Source: Convolutriloba macropyga
Lineage: Eukaryota
Direction: 5' to 3'
DNA: 64,000 nt
Assembly: GCF_964194025.1 (NCBI RefSeq)
Contig: NC_134468.1
Coordinates: 71,114,001 to 71,178,000 of the forward strand
A program made the position numbers and the translations under genes. The notes under the pieces were generated by a model. That model saw nothing but the letters and a program-made list of their open reading frames with translations. It ran no database searches and was not told where the DNA came from. Below, one piece after another: positions 1 through 26,455 of this stretch (the stretch's first letter is position 1; each line of letters opens with the position of its first letter).

Positions 1-183
1 TGCTGTACTGCACGATTCTGCCGAATGGTCCAGGATACTGTTAGATGTTACCAAATTTTCCCAGCTCATGTTTCATGGTTTAACTGGGTTAATCTTTTTT
101 GTTCTTATTAAACTTTTCCATCCTCAATTTTTCAAAAGACTAGACTGCTAATCATTTTTTGATATTGTAATCTAGAAAAAAGA

Positions 184-650
184 ATGTCTCTCGTTGTATT
201 TGATGTTGAGTGCTTGGAGGGGAAAATTGTTAAGGAGTTGGGTGTTTTCAAGGACGGAATTGTTTTGGGATTCAATTTCCTGCCACCCAAAGACTACCAA
301 CCTACTTTTCAAGCAAGGTGGAACACTAAAAATTTACATGGGATCAATTGGAGCAGTGGAAAACTGGAAAATATTGAGTTGTCATCAATCATTCACCATT
401 ATTGTTCACCTACAACAGAATACTTTGCGAAAGGTTTGGAGAAATGTAATCTCCTCTGAAATTACTTTTGTAAAGATGTGGAGAATCTAGATGATCTTGG
501 TTGTCCAAAAGTTTCCAAACTTCTCAACAATTTGGATACTGACTGGGATTGCAGCAACTATCCGTATCGACAGGAAAAATTTTTCACTGTGCAGAGAAGA
601 ACGCTTATGCTTTCGGAATTGGGACTCTTGATCATTTTGATAACGTATAA
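184..650 (+). pseudogene. Disrupted copy of the DEDD-like nuclease gene (left arm)
   Basis: Same sequence as 4301..4768, but with TCA>TGA at 457-459 and a 1-nt deletion near 575-585. It appears in the ORF track as 184..459 and 478..666. Confidence 0.9.
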
Positions 651-1249
651 TATTTTTAAATTCTAATTGTATTTGTGTTCGTTTTGTAATTAGTTTTTTT
701 TATTTTACTACTTTTTAAACCAGAGAAAGGTCGCATTGGAATATGTTTAGCTCGCTGCATATTATATGATGGCATAATAATGCTAGAAATTGACTAGTTT
801 TCAAAATAATAATAGAGATTTCTTTTGAAATTGGGAACCAAGAAATTTCAGTTTAAAAGGTCACAGTTAAATGAAATATTAAAAATTAATTTAAAAAACA
901 TTCGAAAGTTTCAAAAACTGGAGATTTGAAAAGGAGAAATATTTAAAAAACACAATTTTTATTGAGAACCTCATGTCAAAAACGATATTTTGAATCAACA
1001 TGTATTTAAAAAAAACCACTATAAAAAAATTTAATTGAACAAAAGTAGCTTAAAAACATCAAAAACTAACAAACCGAAAAAAAATCAATATACACGTTTT
1101 TTGTTTAAAACTTCATGTAATAAAAAACTGTACGTTTTTCTATGTTAAACAATGCAAGATAGTGCCTTAAAAATTTGTTTTAAACACAAAACAATAAAAA
1201 AAAATTAAAATGATAATGTATAAAGATTACGTATAGCCCATTTTACCTC

Positions 1250-1720
1250 AAATCCCAAAGACGTTCCTCACAGCATAATACCCAAGCTGTTCACGCGAGG
1301 GGGTTTAGCAAGATAATCCCTAAATATTAAATTAGTAAGGTCATTTACCCATTCCCATATTGCGCTTTAATAAGGTAAATTTCCAAAGACGTACCTGACA
1401 GCATGACACCCAAGCAGTTCACATAAAGGGGATCAGCAAGATAGTGCCGTAGCAACGAATCAGTAAGGTCGTTTACCCCTTACCATATTACACTTTAATG
1501 ATGTAAGTTTCCGAAGTCGTACCTCACGGCATGACACGCAAGCTGTTGACACGAGGGGGATTAGCAAGATAATCCCTTAATATTAAATTGGTAAGGTCAT
1601 TTACCCATTCCCATATTGCAGTTTACTAATGTAAATTTCCAAAGACGTGCCTCAGAGCATGACACCCAGGCTGTTCAAACGAAGGGGATTAGCAAGATAG
1701 TGCCTTAACAACAAATTTGT
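1250..1720 (-). repeat. 128-bp tandem repeat, ~4 units (left-arm mirror of 3230-3690)
   Basis: Reverse complement of the unit CTAATCCCCTTCGTGTGAACAGCTTGGGTGTCATGCTGTGAGG..., repeated four times. Confidence 0.9.
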
Positions 1721-1934
1721 TAGAATGAGTCATATGTTCACCAGAAGGAACTAGGGGTATTAGTAGGTATTAAAGAAACAGCGGGTATCCAACTGTTGGG
1801 ACATAAGCTAATTACTCAATATCATGGGTCTTTTATGAATTGGGTATATATTGAATTAGATATTTTATAGTAAAATTGTGAATTGGGTATATATTGAATT
1901 GGGTATTTTTATGTAAAATTTTGAATTTAATTAT

Positions 1935-3000
1935 TTTGTTTGAAAATGTTTTACTAAAATAGTTTTTAATCAAAGATTTCGTTTTCTACATAAGGTTTTT
2001 ATCGAAAAATGTAAATTTTAATGTTTTTTATTTTTCTATTTTTCCATTTTTCAGTTTTTGAAGTTTTTCCAATGTAAAATTTTCATTTTTATTGTTTTTT
2101 ATTAAAAAATATTGTTTTACTAAAATAATTTTTTTTTCAAAAATGTCGTTTTTTACATAAGAGTTAACAAAAAATGTAAATTTTGTTGTTTTTTGTTTTT
2201 CTATTTTTACATTTTTCAGTTTTTGAAGTTTTTCAATGCAAAATTTTTAAATTAATTTTTTTCATTAAAAAGTGTCGTTTTACTAAAATAATTTTTTTTC
2301 AAAAATGTCGTTTTTCATATAAGTTTTTTAACAAAAAATGTAAATTTTGTTGTTTTTTATTTTTCTATTTTTACATTTTTCAGTTTTTGAAGTTTTTTAA
2401 TTGAAAATTTTCAACATAATTATTTTTTTATTAAAAAATGTCGTTTTACTAAAATATTTTTTTTTCAAAAATGTCGTTTTTTACATAAGGTTTTTAACAA
2501 AAAATGTAAACTTTGCTGTTGCTTATTTTTCTATTTTTACAATTTTCACTATTTGGAGTTTTTTTTTCATGTAAAATTTTCAATTTAATTATTTTTTTCA
2601 TTAAAAAATTTTGTTTTACTAAAAAATTTTTCTTTCAAAAATGTCGTTTTTTACATAAGTTTTTTGACAAAAATTGTAAATTTTGTTGTTTTTTATTTTT
2701 CTATTTTTCCATTTTTCAAATTTTGAAGTTTTTCATTTACAATGAAAAAACTTCAAAAGCTGAAAAATGGAAAAATAGAAAAATAAAAAACAACAAAATA
2801 TACATTTTTGGTTAAAACCTTATGTAAAAAACGACATTTTTGAAAAAAACTATTTTAGTAAAACATCATTTTTTAAAGAAAAAAAAAATGGAAAAATAGA
2901 AAAATAAAAAACACTAAAATTTACATTTTTCGATAAAAACCTTATGTCGAAAACGAAATCTTTGATTAAAAACTATTTTAGTAAAACATTTTCAAACAAA
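1935..3000. repeat. AT-rich ~165-bp tandem repeats flanking the palindrome apex
   Basis: The marker AAAATGTCGTTTTT recurs at about 2141, 2302, 2468 and 2638. There are about 5 T-rich units before the apex and about 1.5 inverted A-rich units after it. Confidence 0.85.
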
Positions 3001-3229
3001 ATAATTAAATTCAAAATTTTACATAAAAATACCCAATTCAATATATACCCAATTCACAATTTTACAATAAAATATCTAATTCAATATATACCCAATTCAA
3101 AAGAGACCCATGATATTGAGTAATTAGCTTATGTCCCAACAGTTGGATAACCGCTGTTTCTTTAATACCTACCAATACCCCTGATTCCTTCTGGTGAACA
3201 TATGACTCATTCTAACAAATTTGTTGTTA

Positions 3230-3690
3230 AGGCACTATCTTGCTAATCCCCTTCGTTTGAACAGCTTGGGTGTCATGCTTTGAGGCACGTCTTTGGAAAT
3301 TTACATTAATAAACTGCAATATGGGAATGGGTAAATGACCTTACTAATTTAATATTAAGGGATTATCTTGCTAATCCCCCTCGTGTGAACGGCTTGCGTG
3401 TTATGCCGTGAGGTAAGACTTCGAAAACTTACATTATCAAAGTGTAATATGGTAAGGGGTAAACGACCTTACTGATTCGTTCTTAAGGCACTATCTTGCT
3501 TATCCCCTTTATGTGAACTGCTTGGGTGTCATGCTGTGAGGTACGTCTTTGGAAATTTACCTTATTAAAGCGCAATATGGGAATGGGTAAATGACCTTAC
3601 TAATTTAATATTTAGGGATTATCTTGCTAAACCCCCTCGCGTGAACAGCTTGGGTATCATGCTGTGAGGAACGTCTTTGGGATTTGAGGT
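3230..3690 (+). repeat. 128-bp tandem repeat, ~4 units, alternating variants
   Basis: The CTAATCCCC-like marker lies at 3243, 3371, 3499 and 3627, an exact 128-bp period. Confidence 0.92.
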
Positions 3691-4300
3691 AAAATGGGCT
3701 ATACGTAATCTTTATACATTATCATTTTAATATTTTTTTTTATTGTTTTGTGTTTAAAACAAATTTTTTAAGGCACTATCTTGCATTGTTTAACATAAAA
3801 AACAATGAAAAACGTACAGTTTTTTTTACATGAAGTTTTAAACACAAAACGTGTATATTGATTTCTTTTTTTTTCGGTTTGTTAGTTTTTGATGTTTTTA
3901 AACTACTTTTGTTCATTTAAATTTTTTTATAGTGAATTTTTTTAAATACACGTTGATTCAAAATATCGTTTTTGACATAAGGTTTTCAACAAAAATTGTG
4001 TTTTTTAAATTTTTCTCCTTTTCAAATCTCCAGTTTTTGAAGTTTTCGAATGTTTTTTAATTTAATTTTTAATATTTCATTTTACTGTGACCTTTTAAAC
4101 TGAAATTTCTTGGTTCCCAATTTCAAAAGAAATATCTATTATTATTTTGAAAACTAGTCAATTTCTAGCATTATTATGCCATCATATAATATGCAGCGAG
4201 CTAACCATATTCCAATGCGACCTTTCTCTGATTTAAAAAGTAGTAAAATAAAAACAATTAATTACAAAACGAACACAAATACAATTAGAATTTACAAATA

Positions 4301-4768
4301 TTATACGTTATCAAAATGATCAAGAGTCCAAATTCCGAAATCATAAGCTTTCTTCTCTGCACAGTGAAAAGTTTTTTCGTGTCGATACGGATAGTTGCTG
4401 CAATCCCAGTCAGTATCCAAATTGTTGAGAAGTTTGGAAACTTTTGGACAACCAAGATCATCTAGATTCTCCACATCTTTACACAAGTGATTTGAGAGGA
4501 GATTACATTTCTCCAAACCTTTCGCAAAGTATTCTGTTGTAGGTGAACAATAATGGTGAATGATTGATGACAACTCAATATTTTCCAGTTTTCCACTGCT
4601 CCAATTGATCCCATGTAAATTTTTAGTGTTCCACCTTGCTTGAAAAGTAGGTTGGTAGTCTTTGGGTGGCAAGAAATTGAATCCCAAAACAATTCCGTCC
4701 CTGAAAACACCCAACTCCTTAACAATTTTCCCCTCCAAGCACTCAACATCAAGTACAACGAGAGACAT
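4301..4768 (-). CDS. 155-aa DEDD/DnaQ-fold nuclease-like protein of Polinton-type elements
   Basis: Intact ATG-to-stop ORF. It has an N-terminal hydrophobic strand plus D-x-E (VVLDVE), KELGV, LPP, HGINW, AKGLEK, NLDDLGCP and a C-terminal C..H..HCA cluster. This pattern matches ExoI-like DEDD proteins; the fold is inferred from motifs only. Confidence 0.7.
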   Translation of the reverse strand: MSLVVLDVECLEGKIVKELGVFRDGIVLGFNFLPPKDYQPTFQARWNTKNLHGINWSSGKLENIELSSIIHHYCSPTTEYFAKGLEKCNLLSNHLCKDVENLDDLGCPKVSKLLNNLDTDWDCSNYPYRHEKTFHCAEKKAYDFGIWTLDHFDNV

Positions 4769-4800
4769 TCCTTTTTCTAGATTACAATATCAAAAAGTGA

Positions 4801-5130
4801 TTAGCAGTCTAGTCTTTTGAAAAATTGAGGATGGAAAAGTTTAATAAGAACAAAAAAGATTAACCCAGTTAAACCATGAAACATGAGCTGGGAAAATTTG
4901 GTAACATCTAACAGTATCCTGGATAATTCGGCAGAATCGTGCAGTACAGCAAGTAATCGAAAAACTTTCAATCTAGTAAAGAAAAAGTCAAGAAAGGAAC
5001 TTGCTTAACCAATAAGTCCTCCAAGAGGAAATTTTTGGTCATTTTAATCGGAATTTGTATTTTTGTCCCATATTTTACAGGCTGATAAAAAAGAGTTTTT
5101 GCGTTTTTCATTTTCGGGAAACCATGAAAG
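4801..5130 (-). pseudogene. Decayed phospholipase A2-like gene (viral/Polinton-type HD motif)
   Basis: One minus-strand frame reads FPLGGLIG*ASSFLDFFFTRLKVFRLLAVLHDSA (TAA at 5005-5007, HD at 4936-4941). This resembles the parvoviral-type YxGPG...HD spacing. The 3' part is mirrored at 1-151. Confidence 0.4.
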
Positions 5131-6379
5131 TATGTTTCCGTAACAATTGAATATGTTGACAAGAATGAAACTACCAAAAGATATGACTGGAACTACCACT
5201 TTTGGTAGTTACTTTTGGTGAGTTGAGCAAAAGATGAGATCTGGAAGCAGAAAATAAGAAAACCTGGATGAATAAGGGTAACTGAACAATGTAAGGGTAA
5301 AAAAACAAATGACTGAAATATCTTGAAAATTAACCTCGATATATCGAGCCAATGAAACTTAATTAAAACACAGAAGATTTGGGAACAAAAAACCTCGTAG
5401 CCAATAAGATCCTATAAAACATTTTGTTAAGTCAATGAAAGTTGTGTAGAAAATGATTTAGTGTTTATGTCATTTCTGTTTTTAGTATGGTCACGTGATG
5501 TTAGTAATGAGTTTTTCATTAGTCAAGTGAGGGAGAGTATAGCGAGGCATACCAGCAAGCTAGATTGTACTAAGGTTGGTTCCGACAGACTTTAGTGAAG
5601 TGTTTTTAACAGCCGACGCTTTCTGTACCTCTTCCATTGGATCTTGCTCAGTATCCGTAGAAAAACACGACAAGGGAGCTGTTTTGTCAAATTTTTTAAT
5701 GCCAAACTTGGGGTCAATTGCGTTTTCTTCTTCTCTATTTGCAATAAAATTCTCTGTCAGTGACACATTTTCCACTCGTCACAATCCTTATCAGGTTTCT
5801 GCAAATTTTCGAAGTCGTCAGACAAACACCAGAGGAATTTAAGTTCTCTCTCCTGCTCAGAAAATCCGAGTAAATTTTTATACATTGGTCTATAAGCAAA
5901 CTCATAGTCACAAAAACGGACGAATCTGCTTAGTTCCATGTTGTCTGAGACTTGTAAAGTTTTGTTTTCGATGTGGGTCGCATGAGTTCAATGACCCATA
6001 CAATACCTAGGTATCTGTAATTCGGTAATTGTGGTAATCATACGTCTTAGTTGACCTACATTTTGTTGAGCGGCTCCCTTGCAAGGATGAAATCACCTAA
6101 TTGTCCGTATTTGCGAAGACAGTATGACGTGATTTTTTTGGTATTAGGACTTAATTGATACATTTACGACTAAATTCTAACGATAGTGAAAAATTCCTGA
6201 TAAATTTGTGCTCATAAAACCTCTATCGATCACCTGAGAAGATTCGTTCTTACAAAGAAGATGTCAAAAATGATGTTTGTAAGATCACTAAATAATTGGA
6301 TTGACAGAATGAATTTAAATAAATACAGATGATGGCAAGTTGTATAATTTTTGATATATTTTGGATAAATATTTGATAA

Positions 6380-7310
6380 AATTTTGTTATATTGCTTATA
6401 ATTTAGGTGTTTTTCGACAATACTAAAGAAAATTGGGTAAAATTTGAGTATTTTTGACAAGATTCAGCTACTTTTGGTAAATATAAGTGGCAGGAATTGG
6501 ACAGTTTTTAATAGAATTTTTTCGGTTTTGATAGGAATTAGGTTTTTTTTTGGCAAAAATGTAGTTTTTTTTGGTAAGAAATGGCTATTTTCAACCTGTA
6601 TTGGTTAATTTCTTTTAAGGTTTTGGAAAGTGTTTGTCAGAATTGGGCATTTTTTTCAAGAATTGGGGATTTTTTTTATCAAGAATTGGGTATTTTGGCA
6701 AGAATTGGGCATTTTTAAGCAAGATTTTGATATTTTTTGGCAATAATTGGATAATTTTTCGTAATAATTGGCTTTTTTGGCAGCATTTGGGTACTTTTTA
6801 GCAAGTTTTGTGTAGTTTTTAGACAGAATTGTGTATTTTTTTAGCATCAATTGGGTAATATTTTTGCATTTTTTGGGTATTTTTTAGATAAAATTGGGTA
6901 TTTTTGGCATGATTTGTGTGTTTTTCTCAAGAATTCGATATTTTTAGCAAGAATTGGGTATTTTTGGCAGAAATTGTGTGTTTTTAGGCAAGAATTGTGA
7001 ATTTTTCGGCAATAATTGTATAATTTTCGATAGCATTTGTCTAATTTTTGGTACTTTTTAGCAAGTTTTGGGTATTTTTTAGACAGAATTCAGTATTTTT
7101 TGGCATGACATTGGTGTTTTTCAAGAGTTGGGTATTTTTTTAGCAAGAATTGGATATTTTTGGCAAGAATTGTGTATTTTTAAGCAAGAATTTGGTATTT
7201 TTTGGTAATAATTGGATAATTTTTGGTAACAGTTGTCTATTTTTGGCAAGAATTCGGTACTTTTTAGCAAGTTTTGGGTAATTTTTAGACAGAATTGGGT
7301 ATTTTTTTAT
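6380..7310 (+). repeat. Degenerate ~20-21-bp minisatellite (GGCAAGAATTGGGTATTTTT-like)
   Basis: Dozens of imperfect copies of AGAATTGGGTATTTTT in tandem. Confidence 0.9.
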
Positions 7311-7319
7311 CTACGCGGG

Positions 7320-8150
7320 ATAATATTATTAAGGAATTATCTTACTAATCTACTTCGTGTCAACGGCTTGGGTATCATGCTGTGAGGTACATTTTTGAAA
7401 ATCAAGTAAGCCGTACGTAACTGTAAATGAGTCACCCTATCTAATTTAATAATAAAACATTACCTAGCTTATCCCCTTTGTGTGAACAGCTTGGATATCA
7501 TACTGTGAGGTGCGTCTTTGGAAATTGACATTAGTGAAGTGTAATATGGGAATGGGTAATTGACCTTCTTATTTTGTTATTAAGGGATTATCTTGCTAAT
7601 CCCCTTCGTGGGAACAGCTTGGGTATCATGTTGTGAGGTACGTCTTTGGAAATTGACATTAGTAAAGTGTAATATGGTAGGGGGTAAATGACCTTACTGA
7701 TTTGTTGTTAAGGCACTATTTTGCTAATCCCCTTCGTGTGAACAGCTTGGGTGTCATGCTGTGAGGTACGTCTTTGGAAATTGACATTAGTAAAGTGTAA
7801 TATGGTAGGGGGTAAATGACCTTACTGATTTGTTGTTAAGGCACTATTTTGCTAATCCCCTTCGTGTGAACAGCTTGGGTGTCATGCTGTGAGGTACACT
7901 TTTGAAAATTTACATTATTAAAGTGCAATATGGTAGGGGGTCAATGACCTTACTGATTCGATGTTAAGGCACTATTTTGCTAATCCCCTTCGTGTGAGCA
8001 GCTTGGGTGTCATGCTGTGAGGTACATTTTTGAAAAGTCGTACGTAACTGTAAATGAGTCATCCTAAATTATTATTGAAGGATTATCTTGCTAATCCCCT
8101 TCGTGTGAACAGCTTGGGTATCATGCTGTGAGGAGGTACATCTTTGGAAA
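7320..8150 (+). repeat. Subterminal 128-bp tandem repeat array (~6-7 units)
   Basis: The CTAATCCCC marker lies at 7596, 7724, 7852 and 7980 (128-bp period), with partial units at both ends. It is the same family and orientation as 3230-3690. Confidence 0.92.
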
Positions 8151-8785
8151 TTGGAGGGTAGGAGGCTATACCTAATGTTAATACATAGGTACTTCCTTTT
8201 ACCCCCCCCCCCCCCCCCAGCTTTGCTTAATTATTACTACTCACTTATATCTATTTAATAATAAGTCACGGTCAGTTTAGTATTACGAAAATTATACAGA
8301 TCATTTATTTCTCTGGCTTGTTCCTCTTATAAATTCATGCTGATTGTCACATAGGCGTCCACATCCCACTTTTATCATTCGTCACCACTTACTTTGTGTG
8401 TGCATTGGAGCAACTTGTGACCACTAACATATTATTCAATATCTTGTCATGTGATCACAAAATCTACAAAATGTCTAAATTAAACAAAACTTCTTTGTGT
8501 CAAGCACGCGCTGAAATTCAGTGCTCAAGACGTGAAAAATTAGCAATTATAATTATTGAAAGCGCCAGCTAGTCAAATATTAAGCGCATTTATCATCTGT
8601 CAAAAGAGCTCAATAGAATGACAAGATGTTTGACAAGAGGTCAAATTATCCAGTATAATAATTTTTGATCTTTTCAGCTCTAGAAATCTGATCACAGGGT
8701 TAATGAGCGGGTCGAAACAGATTATTTATGCTAATACTAATATGTAATTTATGCATACTTATTTATACTAGGGGGAGCTACTAAC

Positions 8786-12453: not shown

Positions 12454-15400
12454 TGAAATGAAATTAGACAGAAAATAAATGAGACGATTTTAAAACCTGA
12501 TGGCGAAAATTCTTACCGAACAAATACGCTAAAGACACTTTTTCTATAAGAATAACACAATTTCGTTTACATGAACAGCTTTCATTTTTTTCAGGTTTCC
12601 GCGTATTCAACGCATGATCTAACAGAGAAAATATTTTACTTGATGAGCTTCAAAATTACATCTTTAAATAGTTTCTAATTGCACTCGACGTTTTAATCAA
12701 TTATTGTAGTCGTGTGTCCTCATGTGCGCAATTTATTATTTTTCAAATTAATTGTCCATTTATGAATTCCCGAGATTTGCATGACATAAATCGCTCTCTC
12801 ATCCAGAATTGGAGGCAGTTTATTAGCAGATGTAAATAAAAAAAAAGCTAATGTGCTAATAAATGTAAATAATGGTAGTGGTGTATAATAAACATAATAA
12901 CGTCGTTTAGAGCTCTTTAGTAAATGGACTGCCCCCGTTAGCAACCCCAATCTCCAGCTAAAGCATATATATCCAGCATATAATAGAATCCAACCACCCG
13001 TTTGTCACATGAGTGCAATTGATCCAACTTCAAATGAAAAATACCAAATACTACAAGAAATTAATTTTTAATCAATGTTTTTTGCAATGGTTGCAACTTC
13101 TTTCTGGATAACTGTTGATTGAAAGGCTTAGACATCAAACAGTCAGAAAAACCCGAATCACAAGGAAACAAAATTTTAGACAATAGTATTTCGTCAAAAT
13201 AGGTGTTCTTCTTGTTAATGTTCATCTGCTATTTGAAAAACTTTTTCCAATATCTAAGCTCAAACTAAAAACCCTGTCAAATAGACAAAACAAGTGTTAT
13301 ACTTCTTTCTCATAAACAGTATTATTAACAACAAACGATTAAAATGACAAAATTACGAAAAACTTCTGTTTTTTATTCCTTAAGATCTCGTCATTTCTGT
13401 TGGAAATACTGTTTTAATTATTCGGCAACATTATCTATAAACCAATTAGGAAAATTCGTTAGAAGAAGTAACGCGGTTACTTCTTCTAACGCCAATAAAC
13501 CGCACGTTAAACGCAGTACAACGTAAGAAAAATTGAAATCTGTCTAACTAATAATTTCAGATGTTTTTAGATTCTCGTAATGTTTATCTTGGATGGAGAG
13601 ACAGAAAACTGTTTCAACTGCCATTGTAGTCCCTAAAAAAACCCTAACAAGAAAAAGCCTTGAATCAGTTCATAAACACAAATTATCGATAGTTTGTTAA
13701 ATAAAAACTCCTGAGAATATATATTTCCCAAAACTAAAAATTGTTTTAGGTGTTTTTTTACATTAAGATAGTTCTTGTGAAAAAATTGGATGAAAGTTGC
13801 ATTTTCATGGTTTCATTATCAACGAGAAAAGAAAGTTCAAAGACAACCTGTCATATTATAGCAATTGCACCAACTTTTTGAAGCGAAAAAAAAAGAAATA
13901 ACAAAATAAAAAAAGAATAATTGTCAACTCAAATAAAATTCAGCCCAAATTGACGCAAAAAAATTGGTTAATTGACGCAAATTTTATATTGTGATGACTT
14001 TATTAAGTTAACTTAAAAACAAATGACAATTTTCTCTTAAAATATGGCAGAATAGAAAAAAATCGATTAACTTCAACGCCAAAGGTGCAGTAATCTTGGA
14101 AAATATCATGCATTATTGAAACCAGCTCAGACTAATAATGACTACGGACTACATTAACCTCTTAAATTGGGAAGATTAGGAAACAGAGGAGATTTCAACC
14201 TCAAAATTAGAAAAAATCTTTCAACTCAAAGGCAACATAGATAAATTGATAAAAGCAGGCTAAAAACGGACAGTAAATGAAAATTAGTTAAAACAGTTAG
14301 ACCGAAGAAAACTGAAAACCTTTTTTCGCTCAATTTAATAATAGCAACATTAATTGAGGACAACAAATAAAGCAAAAATTGGAGAATTTTGAATCAATAC
14401 AGACAATTTTAGCTTGATTATCTTTTTGGGCAAATTTTAGTAGTATTATAAAATTGAGCTGAATATTTTAATTATGACGAAAATTTGGTCTAACAAAAAA
14501 GAAACGAATGGCAATTATTAGAATCATAGAACATACTGTAACGGTATTAAGTTAATAACATCTTTTGACAGATAATGCCTAAACGTAACCGAAAATGCAG
14601 AAATTGAACACATATTAGAAAACTTTTAAGTTCTACAACTCAACCAAGCCAACTAAAAAAATTCTTTCAATTAAAATGTGCAATACTCATAGGGCTTTTT
14701 TTATAATACTACCAAAATCTTTACGACAATTATATCGATCAGCGTAAATTGACTCAACAAAAAACAAATTGACCACAAATTTTCTCGCCCTCTCTAAATG
14801 GGTCTTTGATTTTATTAAACTTTTCATCTGAGTGTATATTGAGCCAAAATTTTTGCAATCTAAGACAAATTATGTAGTAACAAAAAACATTTCTTGCTGC
14901 TTTCTTTAGCTGGAACCGTCCGGTATTCGGGAGCTGAAAAATCAAGGATGAATAATCGTTGGATTATGTTTAATAGATAGTGTAAAACCTTTTGTCAAAT
15001 AATTTTGATCTTTTATGCGTGGTCGTTGTTTTGAAAATTTCGTCGAAATGAATGGATTAATTAAAAAATTGGATATGTGCCTCTTTTCCCCCATACCGCT
15101 ACCTTTCATAGTCCCAATTGCAAATTATGTGTAGTTATATAAGTTACTATGTAAAAACAGCATGTTTAATCTGTGAAGGGAAGAGTAGATCTGAACAGAC
15201 AACTGACTAACAAATTTTGCTTAATGGCATCATAAAGACTATGCAACAAATCTCAGGTAAGCCAACACATAGCAATAAGCTTTTCGTTTTCACCCTATTC
15301 TCTGATTACCTGAATTAATGCCAACGCTACGTAACCATTAATCCCCCATTCTTCCCCCAAACCAATTTAGTCCAAACTTATATGACTCATGTTCTCCAAG

Positions 15401-18400
15401 TCTCATTTTTTTCGACTTGTATTGCGAAGTCCTTCTATTCTTTCTTTTGCCTGTAAATTAACCATTTATTCTCTTTCAACACATTAACCGGTTGACAATT
15501 AGCAAGTATTAGTTACACACATCACGACAATACCGATAAGTTAACTTTAAAGTAACCCCAAAAAAGTTATAAAAGACAGAAAAATAAAAGATGGAAAAAT
15601 GTTTTTCGAAAAACAAACACGGATCTTCACGTTTGAAAGAAAATTAATGAGCAAAAGGTTTAGATCTTAAGTTTTCTGATTATCATTTATCAATATGCGT
15701 TTAATAATCCAAGTACACCAAATCGTGATACAATTTTGATCAAAATTGATTTTATTAAGCTATTTTCATCTGAGTGTATATTGAGCCAAAATTTTTCCAA
15801 TCTCAGACAAATTATGTTGTAAAAAACCATTTCTTGCTGCTTTCTTTAACTGGAACCAGCCGGTATTCGGGAGCTGAACAATCAAGGATGGATAATCGTT
15901 GGATTATGTTTAATAGATAGTGTAAATCCTTTTGTCAAATAATTTTGATCTTTTATGCGTTGCCGTTGTTTTGATAATTTCGTCGAAAAGAATGGATTAG
16001 TTTAAAAAATTGAATATGTGCCTCTTTTCGGCCATACCGCTACCTTTCATAGTCCCAATTGCAAATTATGTGTAGTTATATAAGTAACTATGTAAAAACA
16101 GCATGTTTAATCTGGGAAGGGAAGAGTAGATCTGAACAGATAACTGACTATCAAATTTTGCTTAATGGCATCATAAAAACTATGCAACAAATCTCAGGTA
16201 AGCTAACACATAGCAATAAGCTTTTCGTTTTCACCCTATTCTCTGATTAACTGAGCTAATGTGAACAATACGCAACCATTAATCCCCCAATCTTCCCCCC
16301 AACCAATTTAGTCCAAACTTATATGACTCATGTTCTTCAAGTCTCATTTTTTTCGACTTGTATTGCGAAGTCCTTCTATTCTTTCTTTTGCCTGTAAATT
16401 AACCATTTATTCTCATTCAACACATTAACCGGTTGACAATTAGCAAGTATAAGTTACACACATCACGACAATACCGATAAGTTAACTTCAAAGGAACCCC
16501 AAAAAAAGTTATAAAAGACAGAAAAATAAAAGATGGAAAAATGTTTTTCGAAAAACAAACAAAGATCTTCACGTTTGAAAGAAAATTCATGGGCAAAAGG
16601 TTTAGATCTTAAATTTTCTGATTATCATTTATCAAAATGTGTTTAATAATCCAAGTACACCAAATCGTGATACAATTTTGATCAAAATTGATTTTATTCA
16701 GCTATTTTCATCTGAGTGTATATTGAGCCAAAATTTTTCCAATCTCAGACAAATTATGTAGTAACAAAAAACATTTCTTGTTGCTTTCTTTAACTGGAAC
16801 CGTCCGATATTCGGGAGCTGAACAATTAAGGATGGATAATCATTGGATTATGTTTAATAGATAGTGTAACACCTTTTGTCAAATAATTTTGATCTTTTAT
16901 GCGTGGTCGTTGTTTTGAAAATTTCGTCGAAATGAATGGATTAGTTTAAAAAATTGAATATGTGCCTCTTTTCCGCCATACCGCTACCTTTCATAGTCCC
17001 AATTGCAAATTATGTGTAGTAATATAAGTAACTATGTAAAAACAGCATGTTGTATCTGGGAAGGGAAGAGTAGATATGAACAAACAACTGACTAGCAAAT
17101 TTTGCTTAATGGCATCATAAAAACTATGCAACAAATCTCAGGTAAGCTAACACATAGCAACAAGCTTTTCGTTTTCACCCTATTCTCTGATTACCTGAAT
17201 TAATGCCAACGCTACGTAACCATTAATCCCCCATTCTTCCCCCAAACCAATTTAGTCCAAACTTATATGACTCATGTTCTCCAAGTCTCATTTTTTTCGA
17301 CTTGTATTGCGAAGTCCTTCTATTCTTTCTTTTGCCTGTAAATTAACCATTTATTCTCTTTCAACACATTAACCGGTTGACAATTAGCAAGTATTAGTTA
17401 CACACATCACGACAATACCGATAAAATAACTTTAAAGTAACCCCAAAAAAGTTATAAAAGACAGAAAAATAAAAGATGGAAAAATGTTTTTCGAAAAACA
17501 AACACGGATCTTCACGTTTTAAAGAAAATTAATGAGCAAAAGGTTTAGATCTTAAGTTTTCTGATTATCATTTATCAATATGCGTTTAATAATCCAAGTA
17601 CACCAAATCGTGATACAATTTTGATCAAAATTGATTTTATTAAGCTATTTTCATCTGAGTGTATATTGAGCCAAAATTTTTCCAATCTCAGACAAATTAT
17701 GTTGTAAAAAACCATTTCTTGCTGCTTTCTTTAACTGGAACCAGCCGGTATTCGGGAGCTGAACAATCAAGGATGGATAATCGTTGGATTATGTTTAATA
17801 GATAGTGTAAATCCTTTTGTCAAATAATTTTGATCTTTTATGCGTTGCCGTTGTTTTGATAATTTCGTCGAAAAGAATGGATTAGTTTAAAAAATTGAAT
17901 ATGTGCCTCTTTTCGGCCATACCGCTACCTTTCATAGTCCCAATTGCAAATTATGTGTAGTTATATAAGTAACTATGTAAAAACAGCATGTTTAATCTGG
18001 GAAGGGAAGAGTAGATCTGAACAGATAACTGACTATCAAATTTTGCTTAATGGCATCATAAAAACTATGCAACAAATCTCAGGTAAGCTAACACATAGCA
18101 ATAAGCTTTTCGTTTTCACCCTATTCTCTGATTAACTGAGCTAATGTGAACAATACGCAACCATTAATCCCCCAATCTTCCCCCCAACCAATTTAGTCCA
18201 AACTTATATGACTCATGTTCTCCAAGTCTCATTTTTTTCGACTTGTATTGCGAAGTCCTTCTATTCTTTCTTTTGCCTGTAAATTAACCATTTATTCTCA
18301 TTCAACACATTAACCGGTTGACAATTAGCAAGTATAAGTTACACACATCACGACAATACCGATAAGTTAACTTCAAAGGAACCCCAAAAAAAGTTATAAA

Positions 18401-21400
18401 AGACAGAAAAATAAAAGATGGAAAAATGTTTTTCGAAAAACAAACAAAGATCTTCACGTTTGAAAGAAAATTCATGGGCAAAAGGTTTAGATCTTAAATT
18501 TTCTGATTATCATTTATCAAAATGTGTTTAATAATCCAAGTACACCAAATCGTGATACAATTTTGATCAAAATTGATTTTATTCAGCTATTTTCATCTGA
18601 GTGTATATTGAGCCAAAATTTTTCCAATCTCAGACAAATTATGTAGAAACAAAAAACATTTCTTGTTGCTTTCTTTAACTGGAACCGTCCGATATTCGGG
18701 AGCTGAACAATTAAGGAAGGATAATCATTGGATTATGTTTAATAGATAGTGTAACACCTTTTGTCAAATAATTTTGATCTTTTATGCGTGGTCGTTGTTT
18801 TGAAAATTTCGTCGAAATGAATGGATTAGTTTAAAAAATTGAATATGTGCCTCTTTTCCGCCATACCGCTACCTTTCATAGTCCCAATTGCAAATTATGT
18901 GTAGTAATATAAGTAACTATGTAAAAACAGCATGTTGTATCTGGGAAGGGAAGAGTAGATATGAACAAACAACTGACTAGCAAATTTTGCTTAATGGCAT
19001 CATAAAAACTATGCAACAAATCTCAGGTAAGCTAACACATAGCAACAAGCTTTTCGTTTTCACCCTATTCTCTGATTACCTGAGCTAATGTGAACAATAC
19101 GCAACCATTAATCCCCTAATCGTCCCCCCAAACCAATTTAGTCCAAACTTATATGACTCATGTTCTCCAGGTCTCATTTTTTTTCAACTTGTATTGCGAA
19201 GTCATTCTATTCTTTCTTTTGCCTGTAAATTAACCATTTATTCTCATTCAACACATTAATCGGTTGACAATTAGCAAGTATTAGTTACACATATCACGAC
19301 AATACCAATAAGTTAACTTTAAAGTAACTCAAAAAAAAGTTATAAAAGACAGAAAAAGAGAAGATGGAAAATTGTTTTTTGAAAAACAAACAAAGATCTT
19401 CACGTTTGGAAGAAAATTCATGGGCAAAAGGTTTAGATCTTAAATTTTCTGATTATCAATTATCAATATGTGTTTAATAATCCAAGTACACCAAATCGTG
19501 ATACAATTTTGATCAAAATTGATTTTATTAGGCTATTTTCATCTGAGTGTATATTGAGCCAAAATTTTTCCAATCTCAGACAAATTATGTAGTAACAAAA
19601 AACATTTCTTGCTGCTTTCTTTAACTGGAACCGTCCGGTATTCGGGAGCTGAACAATCAAGGATGGATAATAGTTGGATTATGTTTACTAGACAGTGTAA
19701 AACCTTTTGTCAAATAATTTTGATCTTTTATGCGTGGTCGTTGTTTTGAAAATTTTGTCGAAATGAATGGATTAGTTTAAAAAATTGAATATGTGCCTCT
19801 TTTCCGCCATACCGCTACCTTTCATAGTCCCAATTGCAAATTATGTGTAGTTATATAAGTAACTATGTAAAAACAGCATGTTGAATCTGGGAAGGGAAGA
19901 GAAGATATGAACAGAAAACTGACTAACAAATTTTGCTTAATGGCATCATAAAAACTATGCAACAAATCTCAGGTAAGCTAACACATAGCAATAAGCTTTT
20001 CGTTTTCACCCTATTCTCTGATTACCTGAGCTAATGTGAACAATACGCAACCATTAATCCCCTAATCGTCCCCCAAAACAATTTAGTCCAAACTTATATG
20101 ACTCATGTTCTCCAGGTCTCATCTTTTTTCAACTTGTATTGCGAAGTCCTTCTATTCTTTCTTTTGCCTGTAAATTAACCATTTATTCTCATTCAACACA
20201 TTAATCGGTTGACAATTAGCAAGTATTAGTTACACATATCACGACAATACCGATAAGTTAACTTTAAAGTAACCCAAAAAAAAACTTATAAAAGACAGAA
20301 AAAGAGAAGATGGAAAAATGTTTTTCGAAAAACAAACAAAGATCTTCACGTTTGAAAGAAAATTCATGGGCAAAAGGTTTAGATCTTAAATTTTCTGATT
20401 ATCATTTATCAATATGTGTTTAATAATCCAAGTACACCAAATCGTGATACAATTTTGATCAAAATTGATTTTATTAAGCTATTTTCATCTGAGTGTATAT
20501 TGAGCCAAAATTTTTCCAATCTCAGACAAATTATGTAGTAACAAAAAACATTTCTTGCTGCTTTCTTTAACTGGAACCGTCCGGTATTCAAGAGCTGAAC
20601 AATCAAGGATGGATAATAGTTGGATTATGTTTAATAGATAGTGTAAAACCTTTTGTCAAACAATTTTGATCTTTTATGCGTGGTCGTTGTTTTGAAAATT
20701 TCGTCGAAAAGAATGGATTAGTTTAAAAAATTGAATATGTGCCTCTTTTCCGCCATACCGCTACCTTTCATAGTCCCAATTGCAAATTATGTGTAGTTAT
20801 ATAAGTAACTATGTAAAAACAGCATGTTGAATCTGGGAAGGGAAGAGTAGATATGAACAGACAACTGACTAACAAATTTTGCTTAATGGCATCATAAAAA
20901 CTATGCAACAAAGCTCAGGTAAGCTAACACATAGCAATAAGCTTTTCGTTTTCACCCTATTCTCTGATTAACTGAGCTAATGTGAACAATACGCAACCAT
21001 TAATCCCCCAATCTTCCCCCCAACCAATTTAGTCCAAACTTATATGACTCATGTTCTCCAAGTCTCATTTTTTCGACTTGTATTGCGAAGTCCTTCTATT
21101 CTTTCTTTTGCCTGTAAATTAACCATTTATTCTCATTCAACACATTAATCGGTTGACAATTAGCAAGTATTAGTTACACATATCACGACAATACCGATAA
21201 GTTAACTTTAAAGTAACCCAAAAAAAAGTTATAAAAGACAGAAAAAGAGAAGATGGAAAAATGTTTTTCGAAAAACAAACAAAGATCTTCACGTTTGAAA
21301 GAAAATTCATGGGCAAAAGGTTTAGATCTTAAAAATTCTGATTATCATTTATCAATATGTGTTTAATAATCCAAGTACACCAAATCGTGATACAATTTTG

Positions 21401-23609
21401 ATCAAAATTGATTTTATTAAGCTATTTTCATCTGGGTGTATATTGAGCCAAAATTTTTCCAATCTCAGACAAATTATGTAGTAAAAAACCATTTCTTGCT
21501 GCTTTCTTTAACTGGAACCAGCCGGTATTCGGGAGCTGAACAATCAAGGATGGATAATCGTTGGATTATGTTTAATAGATAGTGTAAAACCTTTTGTCAA
21601 ATAATTTTGATCATTTATGCGTGGTCGTTGTTTTGAAAATTTCGTCGAAATGAATGGATTAATTAAAAAATTGGATATGTGCCTCTTTTCCCCCATACCG
21701 CTACCTTTCATAGTCCCAATTGCAAATTATGTGTAGTTATATAAGTTACTATGTAAAAACAGCATGTTTGATCTGTGAAGGGAAGATTAGATCTGAACAG
21801 ACAACAGACTAACAAGTTTTGCTTAATGGCATCATAAAAACTATGCAACAAATCTCAAGTAAGCTAACACATAGCAATAAGATTTTCCTTTTCTCCCTGT
21901 TCTCTGATTACCTGAGCTAATGTCAACGCTACGTAACCATTTATTCCCCAATCTCCCCCCCAGACCAATTTAGTCCAAACTTATATTACTCATGTTCTCC
22001 AAGTCTGATTTTTTTCAACTTGTATTGCGAAGTCCTTCTATTCTTTCTTTTGCCTGTAAATTAACCATTTATTCTCATTCAACACATTAATCGGTTGACA
22101 ATTAGCAAGTATTAGTTACACACATCACCACAATACCGATAAGTTAACTTCAAAGGAACCCCAAAAAAGTTATAAAAGACAGAAAAATAAAAGATGGAAA
22201 CATTTTTTTCGAAAAACAAAGATCTTCACGTTCGAAAGAAAATTAATGGGTGAAAAGTTCAGATCGTAAGTTTTTTGATTATCATTTTTCAATATGCGTT
22301 TAATAATCCAAGTACACCAAATCGTAATACAATTTTGAGCAAAAAGGATTTTATTAAATTATTTTCATCTGAGTGTATTTTGAGCCAAAATTTTTCCAAT
22401 CACAGACAAATTATGTAGTAAAAAACCATTTCTTGCTGCTCCCTTTAACTGGAACCGGCCGGTATTCGGCAGCTGAACAATCAAGGATGGATAATCGTTG
22501 GATTATGTTTAACAGATAGTGTAAAACCTTTTGTCAAATAATTTTGACCATTTATGCGTGGTCGTTGTTTTGAAAATTTCGTCGAAATGAATGGATTAAT
22601 TAAAAAATTGGATATGTGCCTCTTTTCCCCCATACCGCTACCTCTCATAGTCCCAATTGCAAATTATGTTTAGTAATATAAGTTACTATGTAAAAACATC
22701 ATGTTTAATCTGTGAAGGGAAGAGTAGATCTGAACAGACAACTGACAAGTTTTGCTTAATGGCATCATAAAAACTATGCAACAAATCTCAGGTAAGCTAA
22801 CACATTGCAATAAGCTTTTCCTTTTCACCCTATTCTCTGATTACCTGAGCTAATGTCAACGCTACGTAACCATTTATTCCCCAATCTCCCCCCCCCCCCC
22901 AAACCAATTTAGTCCAAACTTATATTACTCATGTTCTCCAAGTCTGATTTTTTTCAACTTGTATTGCGAAGTCCTTCTATTCTTTCTTTTGCCTGTAAAT
23001 TAACCATTTATTTTCATTCAACACATTAATCGGTTGACAATTAGCAAGTATTAGTTACACATATCACGACAATACCGATAAGTTAACTTTAAAGTAACCC
23101 AAAAAAGTTATAAAAGACAGAAAAATAAAAGATGGAAAAATGTTTTTCGAAAAACAAACGAAGATCTTCACGTTTGAAAGAAAATTCATGGGCAAAAGGT
23201 TTAGATCTTAAGTTTTCTGATTATCATTGATCAATATGCGTTTAATAATCCAAGTACACGAAATCGTGATACAATTTTGAGCAAAATGGATTTTATTCAA
23301 TTATTTTCATCTGAGTGTATATTGAGCCAAAATTTTTCCAATCTCAGACAAATTATGTCATAAAAAACCATTTCTTGCTGCTTTCTTTAACTGGAACCAG
23401 CCGGTATTCGGGAGCTGAACAATCAAGGATGGATAATCGTTGGATTATATTTAATAGATAGTGTAAAACTTTTTTGTCAAATAATTTTGCTCTTTTATGC
23501 GTGGTCGTTGTTTTGAAAATTTCGTCGGAAAGAATGGATTAGTTTAAAAAATTGAATATGTGCCTCTTTTCCGCCATACCGCTACCTCTCATAGTCCCAA
23601 TTGCAAATT

Positions 23610-23642
<33 letters not shown>

Positions 23643-23679
23643 GCGAGGGCTTATCCACTCTTTCCAAACCCAAGAGTGG
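23610..23679 (-). other. LINE 3' end: stem-loop plus (CAT)11 tail
   Basis: Perfect 8-bp stem CCACTCTT (23655-23662) / AAGAGTGG (23672-23679) with a 9-nt loop, and (ATG)11 at 23610-23642. A stem-loop plus microsatellite tail is the known L2 3' recognition architecture. Confidence 0.85.
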
Positions 23680-23689
23680 TTGTTTATCA

Positions 23690-26455
23690 TCAGAAGGCTT
23701 GACAGAAAAGGTGAGTCTTCAGCAACTTTTTGAATTCTTCCAGAGTTTCTGCCATTCGAATGTACGCAGGCAACTCATTCCATTCCTTGGCTCCTTGGAA
23801 CCTGAAACATCTGCGAGCAGCTTCTGAAGTACAATTTGGTAGCATAAAAAGCCTCTGTCTGGAAGGGCATGCCGAATTCACATTTCTTTCGAAAAGTTCC
23901 CGCAAGTAAATAGGAGCGATGGCTCGGTCAACTTTGAACATACTGCATAATAACTTGAAAGTAATCCGTTGTTTAATGGGAAGCCAGTGTAACTTTTTCA
24001 GAGCTGACTTCGAAGACGAAAACTTCGCTAAACCGAAAACGAACTTTGCAGCTGAATTTTGAACTTTTTGAAGTTTTTGAATGAACTGCTTATCCAGTCT
24101 AGTATAGATAATATTGCAATAATCCAAGCATGGTGAAATGAAGCACGATACAAGTTCTTTGCGTTGTTTAATATCAATGAACCTTTTAACAGCATACAAT
24201 TTACGCAATTGAATATAACACTGTTGGCAGACTTTGTTGACCTGTTTTTCTAAGGTAAGATTTCTGTCAAAGTGTATTCCCAAAATTTTCACAGAACTTT
24301 TTATCAGTAGTTCAGTTCCAAATAGGACAAGCTTTTCAGGAGGTTTGAAACTGGACTTGCGGTTACTGAGAAAAATGATATCAGTTTTATTCTGGTTGTT
24401 GACAAGTTTCAACTTTTTCATCATTCCAATGGTACATTGAAGCAGATTGTCGATCTCATCTCTTCCTTGTTCATAGTCAAACATCAACTGACAATCATCT
24501 GCGTAAAAATGATATGAAACATTCATTTCATCTAGCAAAGTAAAAAGCGGAGTCAGATATAATGAAAACAACAAAGGGCCCAAAATAGACCCTTGCGGGA
24601 CACCAGAAGTGCTGATTAAACTTTCCGATAAACAATTGTCGATGAAGATTTGTGAGCTTCTATGTTTCAAAAAACTTTCGAAAAAATTCAGAACTATTCC
24701 ATCGAAGCCAAACTTGTTTTTGAGTATCATCAATAAAATGTCCAGATTAACTGTATCAAATGCCGAGGTCATATCCAGCGATATGACAACAGCAGGTTTC
24801 TTTTTGTTTAATATTTCAGACACTTTTTCCAAGCAATATAAAATACTTGATTCCGTTGAATGATTCTGGCGATAGGCTGACTGGAAGCGTGGCCATAATC
24901 CATTCTTGTTGAAGTATAATTTCATCTGAGAGAGTACATGACGTTCAATTATTTTAGAAAGTAGTAGTGTGTTCGTAACCGGTCGGTAGTTTCCAAGATC
25001 GTTCTCATCATCTTTCTTGTGTAAAGGGACTATAACTCCCGGCTTCAAGGAACTCGGGAAAACTCCATGGGATAATACACAGTTAAAAAGCTCCGTGAAG
25101 GTATCAGAGAAACGATTTATTAAAAATTTCAAACGAACTGCTGGTACAACATCATGTGGTGCTGTAGAATTCGATACATGATTAAGGCTTCTTTCAACTT
25201 CCAATTGACTCAGTAACAAAAATTCAGACCAATGGTGCTGACATGTAGGTTCAAAAAATGGGATAGAGTTGTCAAAACGCTGAAAAAGACGCGTAACCTT
25301 CTGCTGGAAAAATTCATTGAAGTCCCGGGATAAAACTATGGGATTCTGGTAATTGGGGAGTTTGTTGATTTTTCTTTTGAACAATTCATCAAAAGTGAGG
25401 TATCTCAATTTGCTAGATTCATTTTGGAGACGTTTTGAAAGAAACCCATCTCGTTTTTCCTTTAGAAGATCTCTGTAAAAATACAAGTGAGACTCAAAAC
25501 GAACTTCATTCTCAGTTGATGGATATTTTTTCAAGGTTCTCTCCAACTTTCTTTTTCGGCGATTGGCTTTGACACATTCAGAATCAAAATAGCGAGGGCG
25601 ATCGGAGTGCACTAGAAAACGTTTAAAAGGAACAATTTGATCCCTAGCGGTGGCAAGCTTATTGTGAACAATATCAAATACTCCATCGATAATTTCTGCA
25701 GAAGTATTACCATTAATTCCAGAGAGGGCACTATGAAACACATCATTAAAAATCTCAGCGTATTCATAATCGTTGACAGATTTCCAATGATAACCCATCC
25801 TGTACTTTGTCTCTTTCACAGGTCGTTCAATTTCAAAGTCGAATAATAGAGCAAAGTGATCCGAGGGCAGACTTTTGTCCAGAAATATGTCAACTGAAAT
25901 TTCTCTGTTCGTTATTACTAGATCCAGTTTGTTGCCATTTACTGACGTTGCTTCACTAGGACAGCAGAATAAACCAAACTCTTCAAGGAGAGAGTTGAAT
26001 TTCAGCTGAAATGAACCGTTCTTGTTTAACGGGATATTGAAGTCACCTAAGATAAAACAATTAAAATATTGAGGTAGGTACTTGGAAACTTGGTCGGAAA
26101 ACTGGTCGAAAAAAGAAGTTATTGATCCAGAAGGAGGCCGATAAATAATGATAAAAAGAAACGTTTTGCGATAGAACGTTATTCCAAGAGATAGAAATTC
26201 CAAATGCGCTTTGAATTTGTTTTTCAGGAAAAGAGTAATTCCACCACCACGTGAGCGTGTACGAAAGACGTGAAACGAAGAATATTTACGGCCAGCTATC
26301 AAATCAATACAGTGCTTCGTTGATTCTGATATCCAGGTTTCAGTGATAGCCAAGAACGCAAAGTTATTCAGCATCAAATATCGATGTAAAAGCTCAAACT
26401 TGTTGCATATGGACCTGGCATTCCAAAGACAGCCCTTGACCGAGTATGTATTTAG
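23690..26455 (-). CDS. LINE ORF2: apurinic-like endonuclease plus reverse transcriptase (open frame of 921 codons, no upstream ATG)
   Basis: APE motifs LWNARS, ITETW, YRPP, GDFN, LDLV and SDH. RT motifs YRPV, GVPQGSILGP and YADD. L2-like C-terminus LHWLP...FKKLLKTHLF. The frame is open from 26455, upstream of the track's TTG start at 26377. Confidence 0.93.
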   Translation of the reverse strand, partial: LNTYSVKGCLWNARSICNKFELLHRYLMLNNFAFLAITETWISESTKHCIDLIAGRKYSSFHVFRTRSRGGGITLFLKNKFKAHLEFLSLGITFYRKTFLFIIIYRPPSGSITSFFDQFSDQVSKYLPQYFNCFILGDFNIPLNKNGSFQLKFNSLLEEFGLFCCPSEATSVNGNKLDLVITNREISVDIFLDKSLPSDHFALLFDFEIERPVKETKYRMGYHWKSVNDYEYAEIFNDVFHSALSGINGNTSAEIIDGVFDIVHNKLATARDQIVPFKRFLVHSDRPRYFDSECVKANRRKRKLERTLKKYPSTENEVRFESHLYFYRDLLKEKRDGFLSKRLQNESSKLRYLTFDELFKRKINKLPNYQNPIVLSRDFNEFFQQKVTRLFQRFDNSIPFFEPTCQHHWSEFLLLSQLEVERSLNHVSNSTAPHDVVPAVRLKFLINRFSDTFTELFNCVLSHGVFPSSLKPGVIVPLHKKDDENDLGNYRPVTNTLLLSKIIERHVLSQMKLYFNKNGLWPRFQSAYRQNHSTESSILYCLEKVSEILNKKKPAVVISLDMTSAFDTVNLDILLMILKNKFGFDGIVLNFFESFLKHRSSQIFIDNCLSESLISTSGVPQGSILGPLLFSLYLTPLFTLLDEMNVSYHFYADDCQLMFDYEQGRDEIDNLLQCTIGMMKKLKLVNNQNKTDIIFLSNRKSSFKPPEKLVLFGTELLIKSSVKILGIHFDRNLTLEKQVNKVCQQCYIQLRKLYAVKRFIDIKQRKELVSCFISPCLDYCNIIYTRLDKQFIQKLQKVQNSAAKFVFGLAKFSSSKSALKKLHWLPIKQRITFKLLCSMFKVDRAIAPIYLRELFERNVNSACPSRQRLFMLPNCTSEAARRCFRFQGAKEWNELPAYIRMAETLEEFKKLLKTHLFCQAF

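Follow-up and report, generated by a model that had tools for sequence, protein, structure and literature searches.

The window analysed here, a 64,000-nucleotide stretch of the 1.18-Gb genome of the acoel Convolutriloba macropyga (G000:C1:71114001-71178000), opens inside a palindromic element with the ends of a Polinton, a class of transposon whose termini begin with 5'-AG and carry short AGT repeats. The mirror symmetry continues upstream of the window to a terminus, AGTAGTAATAGTTAAGC, placed 3,002 bases before position 1, and AGTAGT is present at both element ends. An earlier note, made from the letters of the window, had proposed that the whole element is one fold-back with Polinton ends, and this is borne out. 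Its details fared unevenly: a mirrored terminus exists, whereas it had been expected about 3.3 kb upstream and with one base different; a 6-bp target-site duplication (TSD) is present, whereas the left copy reads CACATA and not the predicted CACTTA (5/6 bases the same, junctions read from the assembly); and the palindrome measures 11,243 bp rather than about 11.5 kb because the left arm is without two 128-bp units.

Each arm exceeds 5 kb and converges on a 3-nt loop at the apex CATT-TAC-AATG (loop 2738-2740), in agreement with the proposed palindrome of at least 4.95 kb, and there is no layout of short terminal inverted repeats (TIRs, 100-1500 bp) around a unique core. The inverted inner arms (1-2051 and 2884-4951) are 96.1% identical with gaps counted (61 mismatches in 2050 columns, 3.0%) and the outer arms are mismatched at 1.7%. 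Symmetry to the very centre, as first supposed, holds for these paired inner arms and fails for ~540 bp of 166-bp repeat units (2052-2590), which remain unpaired. The 11,243-bp element contains no N letters, and short-read contigs from runs X1 and X4 (two samples of one study, possibly the source of the assembly) span the apex with more than 31 letters on either side; the fold-back palindrome is confirmed as real and not a read artefact.

Read from the terminus inward, an arm consists of a family-A Polinton end with 128-bp units, 21-bp repeats, a broken open reading frame (ORF2), a segment resembling DNA upstream of a family-A gene (71%), a 950-bp family-B segment (86%) that carries a 155-amino-acid (aa) ORF, a terminus-less family-A end, the 166-bp units and the tip, with both genes oriented toward the tip. 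The arm is thus mosaic, drawn from two autonomous Polinton families with an orphan gene added. Some autonomous elements also carry the 166-bp repeat within one of their ends (L035, L039/L040, L055, L059; C- and L-labels denote other loci of the same genome, W the window copy). No polymerase, integrase or packaging ATPase gene is present in the element, whose longest right-arm frame (162 codons) has no match to the coding cores of autonomous "helper" elements, and helper integrase and ATPase probes matched autonomous loci only. An element without replication or integration genes would have been mobilised in trans, and the earlier note had likewise inferred integration in trans.

Table 1. Features of the window copy (positions in the window; TSD, target-site duplication)
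Feature	Position	Strand	Remarks
Palindromic element, part inside window	1..8241	.	full length 11,243 bp; left start G000:C1:71110999, after TSD CACATA
Left arm, inner part	1..2051	+	mirrors 2884-4951; 3.0% mismatches
155-aa gene (predicted exonuclease fold), left copy	184..651	+	stop at 457-459, 1-bp indel near 573
Family-A Polinton end remnant, inner, without terminus, 128-bp tandem units	1216..1717	+	left arm
166-bp AT-rich repeat, 4.7 units	1948..2735	+	~540 bp unpaired on right
Type-1 apex	2690..2790	.	loop TAC 2738-2740; kept unpaired AA (2719-2720) facing GC (2759-2760)
Right arm, inner part	2884..4951	-	inverted-repeat alignment
Inner family-A end remnant, 128-bp units	3219..3719	-	89% to L023
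Segment matching middle of family-B autonomous Polintons	4214..5168	-	86% identity
Intact 155-aa ORF, apex-directed	4301..4768	-	DEDD/DnaQ-like 3'-5' exonuclease fold (predicted)
Segment like DNA upstream of family-A 257-aa gene	5257..5562	-	71% identity
ORF2 remnant, broken	5515..6041	-	~300-aa orphan gene, open in sister subfamilies
21-bp repeats	6448..7307	-	~72% to polymerase-side end of L039-type autonomous elements
Outer end: 128-bp units, C-run, terminus ...TTATTACTACT	7324..8241	-	family-A type
Right TSD CACTTA	8242..8247	+	left copy CACATA

The window element is one member of a dispersed family. An 800-bp arm probe, scored on the best 40 of 648 candidates, gave at least 43 matches; inverted arms were present at all nine loci matched on both strands, seven of which have the same apex and two a rearranged centre, and several deletions among them are present in both arms of a single copy only. 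A 21-mer from the apex, for which the earlier note had called for a search, has 46 exact matches in the genome (control 0), spread over 13 large contigs and several of small size. This "type-1" apex is old and common to subfamilies that are just 78-88% alike. The best 150 matches to ORF2 fall into 104 loci (38 convergent, none divergent-only, two same-strand, 64 single), giving at least 38 loci with a convergent ORF2 gene pair; when 16 of the single loci were fetched, four proved to be mirrored and 12 stopped at a scaffold gap, and in none of the 16 did intact core genes adjoin ORF2, which marks the palindromes. Copies have their own flanks and TSDs (W, C12, C15a, C15b, C5, C15c, C13, C4 and C15d/e), and among 26 elements (of all kinds) with both ends detected the TSDs are exact in 21 and agree at 5/6 bases or better in 25. 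The family has spread as a unit via many separate insertions.

The centres of several copies are deleted or duplicated at the apex (C15b, C7, C2, C12, C13, L053, L119). Other irregular arrangements were seen: C12 (L002/L003), C13 (L012/L013) and C4 (L017/L018) have at least two apices or three arms, which may be concatemer-like intermediates, later duplication or misassembly, and a terminus-like sequence inside L097-L099 (L098:6744-7172) appears in mirror image ~215 bp to either side of a type-1 apex. At L075/L077 (C15) and L124/L125 (C13) one element is divided into halves separated by ~110-135 kb, whose flanks at 200-N gaps are reverse complements of each other; the contigs had broken at the apex and been scaffolded inverted. 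A palindrome-driven chromosomal inversion was considered for C15d/C15e and rejected, these being two halves of one element at scaffold gaps.

The two arms of a copy resemble each other more than they resemble the arms of other copies. In a tree of 36 arm segments (window positions 3760-6250), the arms of every multi-arm locus (12/12, one of them a tandem pair) form their own clade with support of 64-100, as do those of C15d/e, the single element that a scaffold gap divides. Locus-specific substitutions carried by both arms number 13, 14, 15, 15, 17, 24, 0, 2, 12, 4, 4 and 24 in the 12 inverted pairs (4-24 in 10 of them), against a mean of 0.28 and a maximum of 3 when arms are paired across loci (n = 132). 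Mirrored variants and arm differences mostly interleave (combined runs P 0.085). These patterns show that the arms of one copy have been re-equalised over their length.

The tip behaves differently. With loops oriented alike, and counting columns rather than events, the 45 nt adjoining the loop hold two mirrored columns (both in L015) vs 84 one-sided ones, and the interval 46-100 nt from the loop holds 24 mirrored vs 34 one-sided. Whatever the subfamily, 18 of 20 apices (15 of 16 loci) retain a GC-versus-TT difference 19-20 nt from the loop. The retention of this fixed mismatch indicates that the tip escapes equalisation and would be inherited in the manner of a hairpin telomere.

A second kind of tip is found in a sister subfamily, where a GC-rich stem of ~130 bp is capped by two 7-bp arms with 3-nt loops, giving a T shape. 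It was seen in L025, L113, L115, L126, L127 and L130 (for example L127:6140-6440), is partly deleted in L119 and L053, and has 28 exact matches in the genome (control 0); it was absent from the autonomous loci fetched and had no exact match in the viral contigs searched. The type-1 apex derives from a 166-bp unit and has a natural stem of only 2 bp. One split (90%) of an ORF2 tree, which is unrooted and so gives no direction of change, parts the two tip types; our guess is that the T tip was lost via a second fold-back within 166-bp units.

Both arms carry passenger genes. Between the left and right copies of the 155-aa ORF there are exactly 11 substitutions plus a single 1-bp indel, the count that the earlier note had made by eye. 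Its structural model (predicted local distance difference test, pLDDT, 84) adopts a DEDD-type RNase H-like fold; matches in the Protein Data Bank (PDB) are mostly to DEDD (DnaQ-like) exonucleases (best E 2.1e-4), catalytically altered MAEL domains also scoring among them, and Foldseek matches to viral structures reach E 1.2e-8, the best named ones being Drosophila-associated adintovirus 2 (E 3.8e-7, template modelling score 0.74) and ichnovirus ORFs. Across 37 sequences D7 and E9 are almost invariant and later acidic residues vary. We therefore describe this passenger as a predicted DEDD exonuclease fold, captured by the satellite from family-B Polintons. The ratio of nonsynonymous to synonymous substitution (dN/dS) is ~0.17 against family B, a constraint that could date from the satellite or from the donor, and ~0.8 among window-family copies, which suggests near-neutral decay within the window family. 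ORF2 has a dN/dS of ~0.40 between subfamilies (12 pairs from seven open copies, the pairs not being independent) and is known so far from palindromes only, not having been found in the autonomous copies examined. Pfam has no family for either ORF; the 89 representatives of ORF2 relatives are mostly fragments and none has a name. A Rep/NS1-type HUH nickase was not detected by Pfam in either ORF, although a remote nickase fold in ORF2 could escape, its structure model (pLDDT 33) being unusable.

Autonomous elements with the same ends, whose presence the earlier note had proposed to look for, exist in this genome: 13 of 20 end pairs (drawn from the first 100 of 384 matches) are of autonomous type. 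These helpers have integrase and A32 ATPase matches, and a polymerase is assigned because polymerase B motifs occur in order; Pfam DNA_pol_B_2 has no match to the helper 1473-aa ORF, and none of 77 polymerase-family matches lies inside the end pairs fetched. Major and minor capsid proteins were not identified for the helper 452- and 281-aa ORFs. Family B comprises five autonomous loci of 17.7-21.1 kb, with exact TSDs in four. An insert at about residues 990-1050 of the helper polymerases bears a weak likeness to nucleases (Pfam E 0.046 and 0.0077; PHROG E 0.0063 and 0.00032). Since VSR or HNH inserts are reported for one class of Polinton polymerase (bioRxiv 2023.08.22.554363), this insert is a candidate for acting on a mismatched stem.

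Exchange between satellites and helpers is recorded at their ends. Among 21 family ends there are 13 combinations of terminal modules, six of them also present in the autonomous copies sampled, on interiors that are 96-98% alike. In 22 of the 26 elements, counting every kind, one end matches the other (shuffle mean 1.7, maximum 8). Within a copy the outermost 330 nt of the two ends are 96-100% alike, against a median likeness of 77-84% to other family members, and in C15b, C4, C3 and C3803 the outer end is nearer to an autonomous end (96-98%) than to that of any family member. These comparisons show that ends were traded with those of helpers and that the new end was then mirrored on the opposite arm. 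Regardless of what lies inside, the first 25 bases of the ends (L021-L060 and the window family) combine two short modules in many ways, a possible sign of primer or end switching between genomes that replicate together. A chimaera on G000:C6 (L070:517 to L071:3305) consists of a family arm fused to the polymerase half of a helper (99% to L021); its ends are unmatched, and its TSD, GCATTC, is perfect on both sides. Together with end exchange, this chimaera lends indirect support to mobilisation by helper proteins.

Fold-back has also taken place separately. L080:225-5167 (G000:C7:27870824-27875766) is a fold-back of a family-A polymerase-side end with TSD TTTGTC; it is 98-100% identical to L045/L046 outside repeats and hence looks young, and its switch point is a 7-bp inverted repeat around a 75-nt loop. 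The junction was found at that locus only, twice, flanking a scaffold gap, and the fold-back is likely, though not certain, to be real. On G000:C5 near 74.99-75.02 Mb (L101, L091, L092, L102) a family-B Polinton is preceded by an inverted self-copy of more than 10 kb at 90-93%, with no matching TSD, an arrangement that may be either a nested insertion or an older fold-back.

We consider it probable, with room for real doubt, that the window element is a helper-dependent Polinton satellite copied through a snapped-back hairpin, with a protein-primed origin at its open end and an inherited imperfect loop at its closed end. The terminal protein-polymerase of a helper would start at either end and displace a strand, which would fold back on itself into a half-length hairpin. 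Before integration the stem would be made uniform, whether by nicking or resection with re-synthesis, by mismatch repair or by cruciform resolution at the tip, and this equalisation would spare roughly 20-45 bp adjoining the loop; this activity might come from the nuclease-like insert in the helper polymerase or from the passenger exonuclease. Copying round the loop would then restore the double-length form for the helper integrase to insert, after which the arms would diverge and the centre would tend to delete. Tentatively, and with rather less conviction than doubt, we extend this account to a separate class of satellite replicons that bear genes and have two unlike telomeres (a Polinton protein-primed end and a closed hairpin, either a parvovirus-like T or mismatched AT), which would borrow polymerase, integrase and perhaps capsids, swap ends nearly every round, keep an orphan gene under selection and be stored in the germ line as unfolded dimers.

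Several observations weigh against the satellite account. We infer the extrachromosomal molecule, the terminal protein and the hairpin, none of which was observed. Shared private variants number 0 in C13 and 2 in C3022; patchy tracts are hinted at in C15a (runs P 0.034) and C7 (0.065); the arm tree is star-like; among ~24 loci no parent copy bears a daughter's private variants; and sibling pairs at separate loci are few, with one clear case (C12b/C4b) and two shallow groups. At 63 nt from the loop C12b and C4b have a one-sided variant in common, so equalisation must have been incomplete in some rounds. End-matching is not required for integration, since the chimaera and the autonomous L041 both have unmatched ends. 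The star-like tree and scarcity of siblings are explained equally well if palindromic non-autonomous Polintons were copied unchanged and only afterwards, within the chromosome, had their arms equalised through cruciform processing by the host or gene conversion between arms. Long private branches, the lack of parent copies, the patches in C15a and C7 and the clear instability of chromosomal centres all suit such a process, in which a cruciform could also spare the tip. We nevertheless judge it unlikely, if a serious contender: near-identical copies have had several hundred bases of helper-type end swapped in and mirrored right up to the TSD, a change that free molecules would permit more readily than copies lodged between unique flanks, and mirrored and one-sided variants mostly interleave without forming tracts. 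TSD mismatches (three in 54 bases, nine loci) are in themselves compatible with either timing, but all three fall in copies whose arms are at least 1.9% apart and none in the four copies at 1.1% or less, small numbers though these are.

Far less probable is the earlier note's own interpretation, that a single Polinton end was duplicated, with no unique core, into a one-off snap-back defective genome integrated once. L080 shows such events in this genome, and a type-1 apex made from a 166-bp unit with a 2-bp natural stem is what a chance fold-back would leave; but the old apex with its 46 exact copies, the separate TSDs at separate loci and a mosaic arm drawn from two helper families and an orphan gene all speak against it, and for the window element it is refuted by an apex common to many insertions. 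A read or assembly fold-back artefact has next to nothing in its favour. The 12 of 16 unpaired ORF2 loci that end at a 200-N gap near the centre, some halves scaffolded inverted, and the multi-apex loci C12 and C13, which may be partly misassembled, show where the assembly could mislead; the window copy, however, lacks N, its arms are 1.7-3.0% apart with indels included, its unlike flanks are joined by a 5/6 TSD and its apex is crossed by the X1 and X4 contigs.

The element is a non-autonomous Polinton derivative with a hairpin-telomere signature. Like autonomous Polintons/Mavericks it has AGTAGT ends, a 6-bp TSD and a size within 11-19 kb, and its ends and passenger segments are common to two autonomous families here; unlike them, its inverted repeat is the whole element, polymerase, integrase and ATPase are lacking and the hairpin tip is conserved. 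The symmetrical minichromosomes of phage phi29 and adenovirus carry a terminal origin that is inverted and duplicated after a template switch, and replicate through a hairpin, a mode of working like the one proposed for the satellites. L080 shares the anatomy of these fold-back defective genomes, and an origin by one template switch from one parent fits L080 and does not fit the mosaic arm of the window. The phi29 and adenovirus fold-backs are transient laboratory products, whereas the satellites here are in the germ line, old, divided into subfamilies, mosaic and gene-bearing. Sub-genomic phi29 molecules derived from one end, and template switching, are described in PMC4974454, and Polintons/Mavericks are given as 13-25 kb with TIRs of 100-1500 bp and TSDs of 5-8 bp in bioRxiv 10.1101/2023.08.22.554363.

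For adeno-associated virus (AAV), PMC8195378 describes double hairpins in the inverted terminal repeats (ITRs), flip and flop forms, and hairpin ends that are inverted and inherited through replication. The satellites resemble such parvovirus telomeres in keeping an imperfect tip in two orientations beside a uniform duplex and, in the sister tip, in having two short GC-rich arms. They differ in that no Rep/HUH nuclease was found, the other end is of Polinton type, the two orientations may only mirror insertion direction and the T tip has no match in the viral contigs. The 155-aa protein has its best named structure matches among the small DEDD-fold proteins of adintoviruses and ichnoviruses; here, unlike those, it is carried by a satellite that captured it from family-B Polintons. 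At the title and abstract level of the literature searched there is no palindromic Polinton formed by its whole length, the founding Polinton papers and Repbase lying outside that search and possibly listing such families; the string "palindrom" does not occur in the accessible portion of PMC6431247. New features, in our view, are passenger genes, a protected zone whose extent was measured, a tip of T shape, exchange of ends, the chimaera and a young independent birth.

Polinton replication in animals has been deduced almost entirely from gene content. The satellites would record strand displacement with snap-back, recombination among co-replicating genomes and fresh fold-back births, and they supply defined substrates (two tip types and a dated series of copies) for tests of extrachromosomal replication. 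If the proposed account is true, they are hairpin-telomere parasites of a virus-like transposon. Palindromic satellites also explain why assembly gaps and inverted scaffolds of one kind keep recurring.

Elsewhere in the window, positions 14821-23663 and 27250-28050 hold about ten tandem units of 937-946 bp, one further unit being parted by a long interspersed nuclear element (LINE)-like element at 23690-27313 (- strand) that has an open 921-codon endonuclease-reverse transcriptase frame with a 285-codon frame upstream. A fragmented region resembling a long terminal repeat (LTR) retrotransposon, with an integrase frame, lies at 42763-48822 (+ strand).

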